In this document: positions 1-7,602 of the stretch, in pieces
Layout of the letters: each line of letters opens with the position of its first letter
How positions within the stretch are numbered: the stretch's first letter is position 1
DNA from: a virus
Length of the DNA stretch: 14,588 nucleotides
UHGV virus genome: UHGV-1840666
Direction: 5' to 3' (one strand)
The notes under the pieces: model-generated
Told to the model about the DNA's origin: nothing
Seen by the model: only the letters and a program-made list of their open reading frames with translations
Database searches by the model: none
Translations under genes and position numbers: made by a program

Positions 1-65
1 ACGGTATTTCCCGCGTGGTGTATGACATCAGCGGCAAGCCACCAGCAACTATTGAGTGGGAATGA
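1..65 (+). CDS. guaA: 3-prime end of upstream host-like gene, resembling the GMP synthase (GuaA) C-terminus; partial, continues left of window
   Basis: Frame 3 translates to ...GISRVVYDISGKPPATIEWE then TGA at 63-65. The ...PPATIEWE ending matches my recollection of enterobacterial GuaA; not verified. Confidence 0.45.
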   Translation, partial: GISRVVYDISGKPPATIEWE

Positions 66-113
66 TTAATAGCTAACTCATAGCAAATCATTTCTATTCA
101 GACACTAACTCAA

Positions 114-256: not shown

Positions 257-1506
257 GTGCTTACCGATACAAAATTAAAAAACCTCAAGCCGCAGGACAA
301 ACTGTACAAGGTCTCCGATCGTGACGGGCTGTATGTAGCTGTGCTTACGTCAGGCACGGTCTCGTTTCGCTACGACTACCGTATCAACGGTCGCCGCGAA
401 ACGCTGGTAATCGGGCAGTATGGGCGTGACGGTATCAGCCTGGCAGAAGCGCGAGAAGAACTGATTGCTGCAAAGAAGCTGCTTAAAGCAGGCCAGTCAC
501 CGGCTGCGGCTAAACGTGACGGTATCAAAAAGATTCGTGGTGCCGAGACGTTTGCGGTACATACCGACAGTTATATGAAACACGTCATCCTGGCTGACAG
601 TACCCGCGCAATGAAACAGGCGGTGATCGACCGTGACATACTTCCGGTTCTTGGCAATAAAATGATGGCTGAAATTACCACATCGATGGTTCGTGATTTG
701 TGTGACCGGATTGTCGAACGCGGTGGCCGGGCAACAGCAGTGCAGGCCAGGGAGATCATCAGTAGCGTATACCGTCACGCCAATGACCGTGGTCATGGTT
801 TGTTTAATCCTGCGGCTGACATTAAACCTTCGTCTATCGCCATATTTAAACCAAGAGAGCGAACACTGACACCAGAAGAAATTGGCCTGTTCTTCCGCAC
901 GCTGGATGCCATTGGTGCTATGGCACTATGAAAATGGCTTTAAAGCTGGTGCTTATCACTATGGTTCGTAAAGGCGAATTCACCAACGCAACGTGGGATG
1001 AAATAGATTTTAAAAAATGGACATGGACCATTCCTTCAGACCGCATGAAGGGAAGCCGGGCGCACGTTATTTACCTGCCTAAACAGGCTCAGGATATATT
1101 GGTCGGATTGCAGATGTGCGCTGGTGGAAGTGAATATCTGGTTCCTGGTCGTTACAATTTCCGGAAGCCATTATCTAATGCCGCGCTGAACTCTCTGATC
1201 GACAGAACGGTGAAAATAATAAATGAAGATGGTGAGCATATTCAGGGCTTCACCGTACACGATATGCGCCGTACAGCCAGTACATTGTTGCATGAGGCTG
1301 GTTATCCTTCAGACTGGATTGAAAAGGCTCTGGCACATGAGCAGAAAGGTGTGCGCGCCGTATATAACAAAGCGGAATACGCCAGACAGCGCGCCTACAT
1401 GTTGCAGCAGTGGGCCGATATGATTGATTCCTGGATTGACGGGGAGCATACGGATCTGATTCCGTTCTCCCCGTCGAAGTTTGAGAAGTGGATGGCGGGG
1501 GAATAA
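257..1506 (+). CDS. int: Tyrosine recombinase, P4-type phage integrase (N-terminal DUF4102-like arm-binding region plus C-terminal catalytic domain); split into two ORFs (257-931, 928-1506) by a frameshift near 925-935
   Basis: N-terminal ORF (GTG start) has LTDTKLKNLKP...YRINGRRETLVIGQYG typical of P4-like integrases. C-terminal ORF has VLITMVRKGEF...HDMRRTASTLL...YNKAEYARQ (R/H-x-x-R and Tyr region). Combined about 415 aa. Frame change 2 to 1 is consistent with a 1-bp deletion. Confidence 0.85.
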
Positions 1507-2480: not shown

Positions 2481-3445
2481 TTAGGAAAAAATTCTCTCTT
2501 TCTGCGAATCAGTATTTGCACATAATGTTTCAATCATTGAAATTATTTCTTTTATTGAGTGATTAACCATCATTTGCTGAACAGCATAGCCAAAAGCGTT
2601 AATCATCACTGCATGAAACTGGATATATTCTCTTTTGTATTCTGATTGCTTTGTACCATGGCGAATTGCTTCTAGTTGTGTAAGACATAACCATGATTCC
2701 CATACTGACTCGATGTTACCAATTTCTAGTTTTTTCCCATTATGAATACAAAATTTTGATGTTGAATCACTTAATGCTTTGAAACTCACCCACATGTTTG
2801 ACTTTGACGGAACAACGTTGTGCTCGAAGTCAGTGACTTCTGCAAAAGTGTCATGTTGCGACAGGAAAGACACCATTTCTTGGGCAACATCGTTTCGTCC
2901 GTCATACGCCATATTAATTGCTGCAGATGGTTTTGAAACATTATTATTAATGTCAGAAAAGAACTGCTGACGCGCTTCAAAGGAAGGTTATGCGTAAGCA
3001 TAAGAGGAATCATAATTGTTTCGCCATAATTACGGCAGAACTCAGCTAATCCTGCAGCACGATGCTGTCCATCAAATAATTTTATTTCTGCATCCATAGG
3101 AAATCTAGCTAAACCGACATTAGTATTTCCAATCTCATGGAACTCTATTTCTGAGTTACAATTTCCGACCAATGGTGGAACAATAAATGGTTCCTTTTTC
3201 TCGTAAGCGTTGACTAAATATTGATAAAACTTTTTTACCCTGGTTGGATTAATTTCACGTTGAGAACGTTCAAGGGTACTTCCCGTATTGTCGGTTGCCA
3301 ATACTCTCGATAGTGCTCTTGCTGGTACTGTCATCATAAGTATTACAGTGCTTCCCTGCGTTCCTCGTGATGCGGGAAATTCAAAGAAATAATCGCCTAC
3401 CTTGCTCATGATATTACCTTTTACATTATTGTTTTGATTATTCAT
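2481..3445 (-). CDS. DGQHR-domain protein (DndB-like, ParB/Srx-fold); two overlapping ORFs joined by a 1-bp frameshift near 2979-2981
   Basis: N-terminal ORF contains ...IKLFDGQHRAAGLAEF..., the signature DGQHR motif. The downstream frame reads through as ...FEARQQFFSDINNNVSKPSAAINMAYDGRND... to the stop at 2481. Start could be ATG 3445 or ATG 3409 (MSKVGDYFFEF). Confidence 0.7.
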
Positions 3446-3737
3446 AAACCACCCCGCAACATCCTATGCCGCTATAGTCGCCACGGCGAAGGCCGTTACC
3501 TTTTGTGATACATTGGTCCCTGCGAACCGCGATCCTTGCACGTTCAACATCACCAGAAGCAACATCCATACACTGAAGCCAAAGGTGAGCGGCAATGCGG
3601 AATTGCCCTTTTTTCTCTCTTTCAATCGCGCGTTTTTCGATCTCTATCGCCGCAGGAGTAACGGCGACAATCTTTGACGGACTGCGCATTGAAACCTTAT
3701 TCATGTGATATTTTTCAAGTCGGCTTAACTTTCTCAC
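3438..3737 (-). CDS. Hypothetical protein (about 99 aa)
   Basis: ORF with GTG start at 3737 preceded by AGAGAGGG (RBS-like). Stop overlaps the start of the DGQHR gene. No recognisable family. Confidence 0.45.
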   Translation of the reverse strand: MRKLSRLEKYHMNKVSMRSPSKIVAVTPAAIEIEKRAIEREKKGQFRIAAHLWLQCMDVASGDVERARIAVRRDQCITKGNGLRRGDYSGIGCCGVVYE

Positions 3738-3850
3738 TTAATCCAACCCTCTCTGAAAATTAATGCCAGCAGATAAAGCCATGCTGAAACAGAGGCCAGG
3801 AATAAGTACCATCCTGACCATTTGCTCCAGTGCCTTAGCAGCACACTCAT
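3734..3850 (-). CDS. Small hydrophobic peptide (38 aa), putative single-pass membrane protein
   Basis: ATG 3850-3848 to TGA 3736-3734, product MSVLLRHWSKWSGWYLFLASVSAWLYLLALIFREGWIK with a 19-residue hydrophobic core. Stop overlaps the GTG start of the downstream gene (GTGA). Weak RBS. Confidence 0.3.
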   Translation of the reverse strand: MSVLLRHWSKWSGWYLFLASVSAWLYLLALIFREGWIK

Positions 3851-3937
3851 GCAGCGTTGCTCACAGGACGATATACACGTTGCTGAACAGGAGGCTTTTT
3901 ACCCTGGAACTCTGCCGGGCTTGCTGCCTGACGTTCA

Positions 3938-4096
3938 TCAACTCCACAGCTCAACTTCGTCACGGTTCCATGCGCAGCGTTTGTCAGTGATATACCAGCG
4001 TTTAGGAAATTCACCTGCGCGCTCCATACGGTCGATAGTGCTCCATGACAGTGGCACCACCGCCAGGAGTTCCTTCTTACCTAATGCACCTTTCAT
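3938..4096 (-). CDS. AlpA/excisionase-family small DNA-binding regulator (52 aa)
   Basis: ATG 4096-4094 preceded by AGAGAGG. Product MKGALGKKELLAVVPLSWSTIDRMERAGEFPKRWYITDKRCAWNRDEVELWS matches the AlpA-family winged-HTH pattern (..LS.STI.R....G.FP......W...EV..W). Below the 60-aa track cutoff. Confidence 0.5.
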   Translation of the reverse strand: MKGALGKKELLAVVPLSWSTIDRMERAGEFPKRWYITDKRCAWNRDEVELWS

Positions 4097-4145
4097 AAAT
4101 ACCTCTCTTGGTTGCAGTGCGGCGCGCGTGGCGCCGCGGTGGTGG

Positions 4146-5063
4146 TTACATAGATGTTTCGTTTAATTCTTCCCGACGAACGCTGTAAACGTCGGTGGCT
4201 TTTGCCAGCAGTTCGTCATCATCTGAAAGTTTTTGTGCAATGTATTTGTAAGCCTTATCCAGTTCGGAGACAGTGCTGTAATTCATCGCTGCGCTGGTAA
4301 AGGCCATCAGCATTTCTTCTGGATCACGGCTATCCGCTTTACGCGTTTGCTCATCAGGCTTTTTCACTGTTTTAGCGTTGATCAGACTGTTCATGCTGGA
4401 TGCTGTGCCGTGCTTTGCCTGACTTCTTGGAGTTACGTCACGTTCAATAATGTCAGGTGAGTCGATATATTTACCTTCCATTTCCTCAGCTGTGGCTTGT
4501 TGACCAATCTCCGGCCATGCTTTACGTAATGCCTGTGCCTCTGCGCATTTTGCCAACTGCGCATAAGGCGCTTTTTCCACATGGCATTTGGTGCCGATGT
4601 GTCACGCCCCCCAGTTGCATAGTTCTCAATCCAGTATTCTTTGGCGCTAAACTCTACGATTTCCCCGCTTGCCCATTCGCTTGCTGACGGTGTACTTACA
4701 CCACTGAGGGAAGGTAACCTCCACGCCTGAAAGCGTTTGTGTTACATCTGGACCGAACTCAGGTTCATTAGCGCCTGCGTAATCGCCGGAACGGTAGGCC
4801 TGAATGCGATAAAGTCCAATGCCAGGCATGACCACGTCGCGCCATTCATTCTTTCCACTCTTCGAGTCTTTAACACTCATTGGTACCAGGTGTACCGGCT
4901 TAAGAAGAGGATCGAGTTGACGCGCCCGGCAGTAATCGACTGCCATCATTACCGATTCATCTTTTGCCCCAGGGTAAATACTGTTTTTCAGAGCGCTCCA
5001 TGTAACTTCATCGATTCCCCGAATAGCCAACACATCATTGGTGATTGCAATTTCGTTGCTCAT
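4146..5063 (-). CDS. recT: RecT-family single-strand annealing recombinase; disrupted by two homopolymer frameshifts (near 4663-4666 and 4572-4576)
   Basis: ATG 5063-5061 overlaps the exonuclease stop (ATGA). N-terminal ORF ...DYCRARQLDPLLKPVHLVPM...GIGLYRIQAYRSG; the middle segment reads in another frame (...EIVEFSAKEYWIENYATGGRDTSAPNAMWKK); C-terminal ORF (V)EKAPYAQLAKCAEAQALRKAW... Placed next to a RecE-like exonuclease. Confidence 0.8.
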
Positions 5064-6351: not shown

Positions 6352-6428
6352 TTACCGTTGAGGTAATAATTATGCGTATTTGGTTTGATGTCAATAGATA
6401 TGAGTTAAAAAAATTACCCATAAGGTAA
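6352..6428 (-). promoter_or_regulatory. Leftward early (PL-like) promoter with two flanking operators
   Basis: Palindromes TTACCgttgaGGTAA (6352-6366) and TTACCcataaGGTAA (6414-6428) flank a perfect -35 TTGACA on the minus strand (6394-6389); AT-rich -10 region is ambiguous. An extra half-site TTACC lies at 6339-6343. Confidence 0.5.
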
Positions 6429-7476: not shown

Positions 7477-7498
7477 GACCGCCACCCGGCGGTCTTTT
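7477..7498 (+). terminator. Rho-independent terminator after the cro-like gene (tR1-like position)
   Basis: GACCGCC (7477-7483) / GGCGGTC (7488-7494) stem, ACCC loop, then TTTT. Confidence 0.6.
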
Positions 7499-7602
7499 CA
7501 TATCTATTCGTACCTCAAAGGTAATAAAAAACCAAATCTGGTTGATCAAATTTTCCAATTGTGCAAAATATCCAATATCAATAACAAAAAGAGGCGGAAA
7601 AA

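Follow-up and report, generated by a model that had tools for sequence, protein, structure and literature searches.

The window, a stretch of 14,588 nucleotides from virus genome UHGV-1840666, represents an E. coli prophage of the phiV10/epsilon15-like (Uetakevirus) kind, which sits at the 3′ end of guaA. The distal part of its early-left operon is a three-gene module on the minus strand, composed of an alpA(xis)-like gene (3847-4096), a gene for a 38-amino acid single-pass membrane peptide (3734-3850) and a perC-like gene (3438-3737). The two small minus-strand reading frames on which the original prediction was based, 3938-4096 and 3734-3850, are both present, and both genes are already known, being annotated in the phages phiV10, epsilon15 and Tyrion. 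The label "lambdoid" used earlier for this phage is strictly wrong, as it is a Uetakevirus, i.e. a podovirus of the epsilon15/phiV10 type. Positions 3400-4200 of the window are 97-98% identical to the phiV10 family and approximately 77-79% identical to Tyrion and SPN1S, with unchanged gene order. The same region is present in 556 of 5426 E. coli genomes, the top ones of which show 99.5% identity over its 801 nucleotides and differ essentially only at positions 3942-3948.

The alpA-like gene and its interrupted reading frame

Alignment to phiV10, APEC E19035 and Tyrion, together with matches to Pfam, phrog_66 and PDB entry 8C3T, defines an alpA-like gene that is 249 nucleotides long (82 amino acids) in all relatives and whose stop codon forms an ATGA overlap with the 38-amino acid ORF. 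The length of 82 residues is kept across the Enterobacterales, with more than 100 protein clusters of this size, and the intact proteins share the conserved tail GKKPPVxxRxYRPVSxAA. The orthologues PhiV10p36 of phiV10, gp33 of epsilon15 and gp34 of Tyrion are described as AlpA family regulatory proteins of 82 amino acids. The first 49 residues of the window protein are 100% identical to the phiV10-type orthologue, and the genes have in common their place after recT, the Shine-Dalgarno sequence and an upstream hairpin. Unlike these orthologues, the window copy encodes only 52 amino acids and has lost the conserved C-terminal tail through a +1 frameshift. Its ORF 3938-4096(-), which starts with ATG, corresponds to the N-terminal 52 codons of the 82-codon gene (about two thirds), whereas the conserved C-terminal 30 codons lie in the frame of ORF 3847-4014(-). 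The premature TGA is caused by a private lesion at 3942-3948, consisting of three substitutions and a one-nucleotide insertion relative to NZ_CP126926, by which GAGC-GTTGGC-TTGA of the relatives is changed to GAGC-TGTGGAG-TTGA. The proposal of a 52-amino acid AlpA-type gene with a strong ribosome binding site thus holds for the family, which is matched in Pfam as Phage_AlpA, and for the good Shine-Dalgarno sequence, but the true gene has 82 codons and its frame is broken in this copy only.

The Shine-Dalgarno sequence GAGAGG (4102-4107, minus strand) is located five bases upstream of the alpA ATG (4096-4094) and is identical in phiV10, APEC and Tyrion. Folding of window positions 4085-4160 gave a GC hairpin (GCGGCGC-CACGC-GCGCCGC, 4119-4137, minus strand) between the recT stop codon (4146-4148) and alpA. 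It lacks a U-tract, is nearly invariant in the alignment of four phages, where phiV10 alone differs by one substitution in the loop, and carries the label 'stem-loop; transcriptional pausing' in the epsilon15 RefSeq record.

The lesion in alpA is shared by no complete E. coli genome, and we consider it, and with it the 52-residue form, probably a sequencing or assembly error, judging from the pattern of differences across the window. A comparison over 10.3 kb with the closest genome, NZ_CP126926, yields 12 one-base indels and only 5 substitutions; ten of the indels are one-base deletions of G or C, eight of these in short G/C runs, and the remainder of the 10.3 kb is 99.8% identical to the intact prophage. 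This excess of indels over substitutions makes sequencing error the most likely source of the pattern. If the frameshifts were genuine, the window would be a cryptic prophage in decay, and its alpA a pseudogene that encodes a 52-residue winged-helix remnant. Such decay would fit with the number of genes that are frameshifted (int, the DGQHR gene, alpA, recT twice, the repressor and replication genes) and with the retention of most of the winged helix-turn-helix domain in the remnant (Pfam positions 7-50 of 51), but far more substitutions per indel would then be expected, and in view of the private nature of the alpA lesion and the close identity to an intact prophage we regard real decay as quite unlikely. 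A real frameshift would deprive the protein of its conserved C-terminal tail, and translation of the peptide and PerC would no longer be coupled to that of alpA.

With about one single-base indel per 860 bases most genes are split and an ORF-based reading of the window is unreliable; the indels make the 82-residue gene appear to encode 52 residues and create a spurious antisense ORF of 114 amino acids. The plus-strand ORFs 3763-3990 and 3822-4166 had been dismissed as antisense, which is borne out by their lack of conservation and by the stops or split frames found in relatives. As a gene, the 75-residue plus-strand ORF is rejected for its stops in Tyrion and epsilon15, and the 114-residue ORF exists only owing to the frameshift in the window. 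Clusters of 115-120 amino acids that looked like natural fusions of AlpA and the peptide, and as such like a clue to function, proved to be frameshift read-throughs.

Relation of the AlpA-like protein to the GIsul2 excisionase

Membership of the AlpA family, which had been proposed from the letters alone, was confirmed by matches to Phage_AlpA (PF05930) above the gathering score of 21, both for the 52-residue ORF (23.3 bits) and for the intact 82-residue orthologue (24.2 bits). The best PHROG is phrog_66, 'excisionase and transcriptional regulator' (E 2e-16), of the category 'integration and excision'. An AF2 model of P0004, which is 99% identical to the intact orthologue, has a pLDDT of 81 and a β-α-α-β-β-α fold. 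Its best Foldseek match is 8C3T, the excisionase of GIsul2, with a target-normalised TM score of 0.93 and an rmsd of 1.0 over 57 residues, followed by RdfS, TorI and Pukovnik Xis. The relation to the GIsul2 protein is also found by sequence comparison (E 1.8e-11 for 8C3T; 38-39% identity to GIsul2 AlpA, WP_001179606), whereas TorI from KplE1, RdfS, Pukovnik Xis and BldC, which are MerR-like winged-helix recombination directionality factors, share only the fold class with it (E 0.04-0.5, 16-23% identity). The winged-helix fold is thus the same in the window protein and GIsul2 AlpA, but the genetic setting is different. The alpA gene of GIsul2 follows immediately after int, shares its strand and encodes a protein of 73 amino acids with a different tail, while the window alpA is located about 2.3 kb from a convergent int, within the early-left operon, is followed by the coupled peptide gene, and belongs to a type with the tail KKPPVxQRVYRPVSNAA.

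The integrase gene, which is convergent with the early-left operon, encodes a tyrosine integrase of the P4 type (257-1506, plus strand) and is split into ORFs 257-931 and 928-1506 by an indel at about position 921. Its intact orthologue WP_001567237 and the integrase of GIsul2 share 54% identity (E 2e-161). The att core attgagtgggaatgatt (attL) is found at 51-67 on the plus strand, at the 3′ end of guaA, and the published attP/attB core of phage vB_EcoP_ZX5 is the same 17-mer, attgagtgggaatgatt (PMC9782041). The integration site of GIsul2 is GAGTGGGA (PMC9376610), so that prophage and GIsul2 have the guaA core GAGTGGGA in common. A search of attL for binding sites of a recombination directionality factor (RDF) or for Int arm sites revealed two copies of TCATTTCTATTCA, which has no counterpart beside the GIsul2 int gene. 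In recombination, the AlpA-like protein probably has this integrase as its partner. Overexpression of GIsul2 alpA leads to more circular intermediates (PMC9376610).

Because of this homology and the shared integrase and att site, the intact AlpA-like protein is most likely the recombination directionality factor of the phage, and possibly a regulator as well. Members of the AlpA family include both excisionases and transcription activators (PMC11773190), and the protein could instead act mainly as a transcription factor, i.e. as an activator of int, late or other phage genes or as an antiterminator, for which AlpA of CP4-57, of PICIs and of P. aeruginosa may serve as models. The Pfam family takes its name from a regulator, AlpA is the master activator in E. 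coli PICIs (PMC11773190), int requires its own promoter since it is convergent with the operon, and the GC hairpin is positioned immediately upstream of alpA. We nevertheless find a mainly regulatory role improbable: the nearest relative, in structure as well as sequence, is an excisionase whose element uses the same att core and has an integrase 54% identical to that of the phage, the best PHROG belongs to integration and excision, and the early-left operon shows no other RDF candidate. Dual function is moreover common in the family and the two roles are not exclusive. Published experiments on any Uetakevirus AlpA or 38-residue peptide, including gp32/gp33 of epsilon15 or phiV10, were not found in the literature, and the paper describing vB_EcoP_ZX5 makes no mention of AlpA or the 38-residue peptide (PMC9782041).

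The 38-residue membrane peptide

The peptide gene (3734-3850, minus strand) starts with ATG, and its TGA stop overlaps the GTG start (3737) of the 99-codon ORF as GTGA. The product corresponds to PhiV10p35, epsilon15 gp32 and Tyrion gp33, orthologues which are 79-97% identical to it, have the same overlaps on both sides and differ in nothing of substance. It matches phrog_17484 ('membrane protein') over its full length (1-38 of 38, E 4.7e-27), the sole PHROG found for it, of the category 'moron, auxiliary metabolic gene and host takeover'. Prediction of transmembrane segments, a check that had been suggested with the original prediction, gave a single helix comprising residues 14-32. The peptide is rich in tryptophan, with Trp at both interfaces, and a small-xxx-small motif ([AGT]19-x3-A23) is conserved. 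WSGW and REGWI motifs also occur in the peptide. The earlier description of a real small hydrophobic peptide that is coupled to the next gene is supported by the phrog_17484 match and the GTGA overlap, the next gene being a member of the PerC family.

Tblastn gave full-length matches to the 38 residues in 35 phage records, which cover four host genera, and 23 of the 38 positions are invariant across four genera. The codon-level comparison, with a dN/dS of 0.19 in the peptide frame as compared to about 1.3 in the two other sense frames, shows that the frame is under purifying selection; within E. coli pN/pS is 0.37, and 78 of 80 copies of the gene in IMG/VR are intact. On the antisense strand, the frame with the same third codon positions has a dN/dS of 0.27, which is the expected mirror artefact, and contains stops in the window and in Tyrion. 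Peptide length and overlaps are kept in Escherichia, Salmonella, Enterobacter, Klebsiella, Citrobacter, Kluyvera, Scandinavium and Superficieibacter, and divergent homologues of 39-40 amino acids are found in identical synteny. Conservation in related phages, on which the original prediction depended, was established for both small genes, the alpA-like one at its full 82 codons. In Pseudescherichia vulneris, Ca. Erwinia dacicola and K. pneumoniae ATCC 13883 the peptide is missing or decayed while AlpA and PerC are kept, which indicates that the peptide is dispensable for the module.

The gene had been described as missed by the ORF track. This follows from the cutoff of 60 amino acids that was used, but the RefSeq records of the phages do annotate the 38-codon gene; in E. 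coli chromosomes PGAP omits it too. A word-index protein search, for which the query was padded with two upstream in-frame codons, returned three peptide clusters and a full HMMER scan eight matches; these eight matches show that the ORF is rarely called by gene callers.

A host-killing function such as that of Kil had been suggested for the peptide. Lambda Kil and Rac KilR are soluble inhibitors of FtsZ that have no transmembrane helix. The likeness to these proteins is positional only, as small products of an early-left operon near recombination genes; there is no sequence similarity, and the peptide does have a transmembrane helix. The Kil-like assignment was not upheld, since no Pfam family, Lambda_Kil included, is matched at E≤1 and the only PHROG is 'membrane protein'. 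Searches of the peptide against NCBIfam, PADLOC and PDB gave no match, PADLOC gave none that would indicate anti-phage defence by the peptide, AlpA or PerC, and no Rfam match at gathering level, antitoxin RNA included, is present in the whole window. Membership of a type I toxin-antitoxin system (Hok/Sok, Ldr, Ibs, TisB and similar) was rejected, as Pfam, NCBIfam and Rfam gave no match. A toxin that kills the host or arrests its growth, be it Kil-like or type I-like, would be consistent with a small, hydrophobic and Trp-rich peptide with one membrane helix, with its PHROG category and with expression that would occur only from the repressed early-left operon. Given these search results, the soluble nature of the Kil proteins and the lineages that lost the peptide yet kept its neighbours, we consider a toxin unlikely.

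Translational coupling and a model for the operon

The perC-like gene (3438-3737, minus strand) encodes 99 amino acids from the GTG at 3737. Its product scores 30.1 bits against PerC (PF06069; gathering score 22.6) and matches phrog_868 over its full length (1-99 of 99, E 1.6e-61). In other genera an ATG stands at this position as part of an ATGA overlap, and the protein's N-terminal residues are kept. A longer PerC of 122 amino acids that extends N-terminally over the peptide frame, as in two Klebsiella phage records, was rejected, since this extended frame is interrupted by a stop in both E. coli and Tyrion and its dN/dS is about 1.35. Overlaps of four nucleotides between stop and start join alpA to the peptide gene and the peptide gene to perC in every intact relative examined. 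The claim that the peptide is coupled to the next gene was therefore correct for the GTGA junction but incomplete, as intact relatives also couple it through ATGA to the upstream AlpA.

The 38-codon ORF might serve solely to pass ribosomes on from alpA to perC as a translational bridge, the peptide itself being functionless. The overlaps on both sides in all intact copies and the weakness of the peptide's own Shine-Dalgarno sequence would fit with a bridge, but not the constraint at the amino acid level (dN/dS and invariant positions as given above), nor the length of 38-40 residues, which is held even at low identity; in P. vulneris, perC directly follows alpA without a bridging ORF. A bridge without peptide function is accordingly very unlikely in our judgement.

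A search for σ70-like promoters on the minus strand found none in 3300-4300; the only one is at 6394-6366(-). After inactivation of the repressor, transcription would start from the promoter near 6366-6394(-) and proceed through the nuclease gene, recT and the GC hairpin. Ribosomes would initiate at the strong alpA Shine-Dalgarno sequence and re-initiate at ATGA and then at GTGA and, with the weak Shine-Dalgarno sequence of the peptide gene, the peptide and PerC would be made in fixed proportion to AlpA. The 82-residue protein, of the MerR/excisionase winged-helix type, would serve the convergent P4-type integrase as its RDF at the guaA att site and might regulate int as well, in a mode like that of its GIsul2 homologue. 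The peptide is predicted to insert into the inner membrane as a single-span helix where, early in lytic development, it would probably pack against another copy of itself or against a membrane protein of the host. We consider it likely that this explanation is correct as a whole, i.e. that the locus belongs to the operon of a guaA prophage and encodes an AlpA-like RDF with a coupled membrane peptide and PerC, the 52-residue form of the RDF being artefactual.

A more specific role for the peptide can be proposed only tentatively. It is possible, if rather doubtful, that it is a phage effector which is produced stoichiometrically with the excisionase and uses its small-xxx-small face to bind one particular protein of the host inner membrane at the time of excision. 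Proteases such as FtsH/HflKC, division proteins and components of the envelope or of DNA entry are among the candidate targets.

The AlpA-like protein emerges from these comparisons as a well-supported candidate for the recombination directionality factor of the Uetakevirus group, homologous to the GIsul2 excisionase. The peptide is part of a prophage region found in about 10% of the complete genomes of E. coli; in the records examined, its gene is not annotated by PGAP. Should the peptide indeed be an effector, it would tie the decision to excise to altered host membrane physiology or to superinfection exclusion.

The AlpA-family gene and its lesion

Both minus-strand ORFs of the original prediction were found where it had placed them. 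The 52-codon ORF (3938-4096, minus strand) has an ATG start five bases after GAGAGG (4107-4102), in line with the strong ribosome binding site ascribed to it, and its product scores above the gathering score of Pfam Phage_AlpA (23.3 versus 21). The assignment to the AlpA family therefore stands, whereas the length of 52 amino acids does not: the gene encodes 82 amino acids and is frameshifted in the window. In phiV10 (PhiV10p36), Tyrion (gp34), epsilon15 (gp33), Klebsiella phages and the E. coli chromosome (WP_000675390) alpA measures 249 nt, and in phiV10, Tyrion, epsilon15 and the E. coli chromosome its 3' end overlaps the start of the 38-aa ORF as ATGA. Alignment and the list of differences showed that at 3942-3948 the coding strand of the relatives reads GAGC-GTTGGC-TTGATG and that of the window GAGC-TGTGGAG-TTGATG, a lesion of three substitutions and one inserted base. 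The window protein ends in ...EVELWS* and those of the relatives in ...EVERWLDERQAASPAEFQGKKPPVQQRVYRPVSNAA*; the last 30 alpA codons persist in the frame of ORF 3847-4014(-). Because the length is nearly always 82 amino acids and the motif GKKPPVxxRxYRPVSxAA is strongly conserved across 38 diverse homologues, this comparison marks the C-terminal tail as functional sequence.

Over 801 nt the best-matching E. coli genomes show four differences from the window, all of them the alpA lesion (99.5% identity), and an intact 82-aa AlpA is encoded in 80 of 80 retrieved IMG/VR loci, which were chosen by similarity to the intact protein. The lesion is private to the window. Over 10,336 aligned bases, the window and E. 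coli APEC E19035 (NZ_CP126926) differ by 12 one-base indels and only five substitutions, three of them inside the lesion. The indels (window positions 113, 921, 2312, 2508, 2974, 4566, 4672, 6718, 8152, 9105 and 9524, plus 3942-3948) strike int, the DGQHR gene (twice), recT (twice), the repressor gene, the DnaT-like gene, the P gene and others; ten are G or C deletions, eight of those in short G/C runs. With more than two indels per substitution in sequence that is otherwise 99.8% identical, the pattern very probably reflects homopolymer-type sequencing error rather than gradual decay, which makes every ORF call in the window suspect. What the window shows as an AlpA ORF is thus a fragment left by a frameshift, most likely a sequencing error. 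If the lesion were real, AlpA would lack its conserved tail, and translation would end 88 nt before the ATG of the peptide gene, breaking the coupling between the two.

The 38-residue peptide and the PerC gene

RefSeq phage records already list both small genes, and each has a PHROG family; as predicted, the ORF track missed these known genes, which here fall below its 60-aa cutoff. The 38-aa ORF (3734-3850, minus strand), annotated as PhiV10p35, epsilon15 gp32 and Tyrion gp33, is matched end to end by phrog_17484 ('membrane protein', E 4.7e-27). It shares the bases GTGA with the 99-aa ORF 3438-3737(-), its own TGA overlapping the GTG start at 3737, so that the stop/start overlap behind the predicted translational coupling to the next gene is present. 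By tblastn the peptide is matched over its full length in 35 phage records, with 95-100% identity for the phages of E. coli, 76-79% for those of Salmonella and Enterobacter and 66% for those of Klebsiella. In all intact copies its start overlaps the alpA stop as ATGA (GTGA in Klebsiella) and its stop overlaps the perC start as ATGA (GTGA in E. coli). Among E. coli, Enterobacter, Salmonella and Klebsiella sequences the peptide frame has a dN/dS of 0.19, against 1.31 and 1.35 for the two remaining sense frames; the antisense frame with the same third positions has 0.27, as expected for a mirror frame, and contains stops. Within E. coli, 78 of 80 IMG/VR copies are intact (pN/pS 0.37). By these comparative measures the 38-aa ORF is a real, conserved gene. 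What is added to the existing annotation is quantitative evidence of purifying selection on the peptide and, in intact copies, a triad of alpA, peptide gene and perC with predicted stop/start coupling.

A profile search of 1.84 billion proteins gave only eight peptide matches, including 39-40-aa homologues such as MIAAIRNRITKCAGWMIFLGAVAAWLALLAAVLTTEGWLK. Two distant homologues could be placed on contigs, and both lie between 82-84-aa AlpA and 99-101-aa PerC genes, with 4-nt overlaps and the recT...MT-A70...int context of the window. The triad is intact in 8 of the 16 GTDB species-representative loci with the AlpA clade. Pseudescherichia vulneris has perC immediately after alpA, K. pneumoniae ATCC 13883 has a deletion that fuses the perC region to that of the peptide, and Ca. 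Erwinia dacicola has a decayed peptide frame, so that the peptide, though conserved, is dispensable. The 'AlpA' clusters P0006, P0009, P0046 and P0083 (115-120 aa) were considered as natural fusions, but they arise where a frameshift lets alpA read through into either the 38-aa frame or the third one.

The peptide, MSVLLRHWSKWSGWYLFLASVSAWLYLLALIFREGWIK, contains a hydrophobic 19-residue segment at residues 14-32 (Wimley-White octanol -15.7 kcal/mol, mean Kyte-Doolittle 1.9), in line with its proposed transmembrane character, between weakly basic flanks (+2 and +1), and has five Trp residues. Across four genera the pattern M..L.R.W..WSGW.L.L...SAWL.LLA.IFREGWI. is invariant; in the aligned sequences only A, G or T occurs at position 19 and only A at position 23, forming a small-xxx-small face. 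These features suggest a helix that would cross the inner membrane once, with Trp belts at the interfaces and a face for helix packing; this would point to self-association or binding of a host membrane protein. The original prediction also suggested a host-killing function like that of Kil; the peptide has no match in Pfam, NCBIfam, PADLOC or PDB, so that operon position is the one point in favour of the suggestion. A tentative and rather unlikely reading would make the peptide a specific effector at the membrane, produced together with the excisionase. No Rfam family was found anywhere in the window.

The 99-aa ORF belongs to the PerC family (30.1 versus a gathering score of 22.6). Its long form, starting with the GTG at 3737, is backed by a full-length phrog_868 match, and other genera have ATG at this position and conserve the N-terminal PerC residues; PGAP and the phiV10 record use later ATGs. 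The product also gave a sub-threshold hit to NCBIfam ANR (AraC negative regulator; 23.6 bits, cutoff 32). A PerC gene is also named as one of the shared genes of the E. coli PICI EcCIMP1, an element with AlpA-family genes (PMC11773190). Two Klebsiella phage records (L086 and L087, 2539-2907 in both) omit the peptide gene and list a 'PerC' of 122 aa, with an N-terminal extension overlapping the 38-aa ORF out of frame; this is probably a misannotation, because the extension frame is free of coding constraint (dN/dS ~1.35) and contains a stop in E. coli and Tyrion. The plus-strand ORFs opposite alpA and the peptide gene are, as originally proposed, antisense frames and not genes: the homologous frames hold stops in Tyrion and epsilon15, and the 114-aa ORF is continuous only in the window, where the local frameshift joins two frames.

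No sigma70-like promoter was found on the minus strand within 3300-4300; the only candidate (TTGACA-17-AATTAT, 6394-6366, minus strand) lies just after the terminator following the repressor gene. Between recT and alpA, a GC hairpin (4119-4137, minus strand; 7-bp stem, 5-nt loop, no U-tract) hardly varies among the aligned phages, which range from those of E. coli to Enterobacter phage Tyrion, apart from a single loop substitution in phiV10. Its counterpart in the epsilon15 RefSeq record is labelled a transcriptional pause stem-loop; in the window the local fold z-score (-1.25) is unremarkable. alpA has a strong Shine-Dalgarno sequence, whereas the peptide gene has only GTGAG about 12 nt before its start, and for this reason the peptide is probably translated by termination-reinitiation at ATGA. 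PerC would probably be translated likewise, at GTGA.

Prophage context and integration site

Matches to window 3400-4200 were found in 559 E. coli records, which come from 556 of the 5426 complete genomes; most are 95-99% identical and the best 99.5%. phiV10, O157 typing phages 9 and 10, vB_EcoP_ZX5 and others are 97-98% identical over this region and Tyrion and SPN1S ~77-79%; 16 further phage records, including more Salmonella and Klebsiella phages, also match, and every annotated phage match belongs to the genus Uetakevirus. In the top chromosomal match, APEC E19035, the element lies directly 3' of guaA. The sequence attgagtgggaatgatt at window 51-67, where guaA ends, is the attL core; it agrees base for base with the attP/attB core reported for vB_EcoP_ZX5, likewise at the 3' end of guaA (PMC9782041), and it includes the integration site GAGTGGGA of the GIsul2 element.

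Downstream of the repressor gene the minus strand encodes two small hypothetical proteins, a PD-(D/E)XK nuclease, RecT, the AlpA-family protein, the 38-aa peptide, the PerC-family protein, a DGQHR/DndB-like protein, an MT-A70 methylase and a DUF1382 protein; a P4-type integrase gene on the plus strand is convergent with this operon. The DGQHR/DndB-like gene (2481-3445, minus strand; PADLOC DndB, E 2e-37) separates perC from the MT-A70 gene, and is frameshifted in the window and 355 aa long in relatives. phiV10, epsilon15 and Tyrion lack this insertion and have small DUF1317 or other genes in its place; the interval is a variable cargo slot, and this cargo is possibly related to defence or anti-defence.

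The attL arm between core and int holds two exact copies of the 13-mer TCATTTCTATTCA, 62 nt apart (88-100 and 150-162). Copies with two mismatches occur at the immunity region (6391-6403, minus strand; 7498-7510, plus strand), one of them overlapping the -35 hexamer of the early-left promoter-like site. The four matches (0.5 expected) may be Int arm-type sites or sites for a recombination directionality factor (RDF) or regulator; no copy was found next to the GIsul2 int gene.

The AlpA-like protein and the GIsul2 excisionase

An AlphaFold2 model built from the 38-sequence alignment (pLDDT 81) has a beta-alpha-alpha-beta-beta-alpha order followed by a low-confidence tail. Its sole significant PDB match in Foldseek is 8C3T, 'Structure of the GIsul2 transposon excisionase' (E 1.4e-5; target-normalised TM 0.93, rmsd 1.0, 38% identity), ranked ahead of RdfS, TorI, BldC, Pukovnik Xis and MerR-family domains; sequence alone also matches 8C3T (E 1.8e-11). 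Overexpression of GIsul2 alpA yields more circular intermediates (PMC9376610). The best PHROG, phrog_66 ('excisionase and transcriptional regulator', E 2e-16), agrees with an RDF assignment. A regulatory role may also apply, as the convergent int requires its own promoter and the AlpA family, one name spanning both activities, includes true activators such as the PICI master regulators (PMC11773190). Experiments on a Uetakevirus AlpA were not found in the literature; the ZX5 study assayed only repressor, anti-repressor and integrase (PMC9782041).

The strongest argument available for the RDF role comes from comparison with the int-alpA pair of GIsul2, taken from pAB3. The GIsul2 integrase is 54% identical to that of the prophage over 396 residues (E 2e-161) and its AlpA is 39% identical to the prophage AlpA-like protein, so that the Uetakevirus Int/AlpA pair is homologous to the Int/excisionase pair of GIsul2 and shares its chromosomal target at guaA. 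By this analogy the 82-aa AlpA-like protein is most likely the RDF of the phage. With integrases 54% identical, an Int/RDF/att system appears common to a phage genus and a resistance island.
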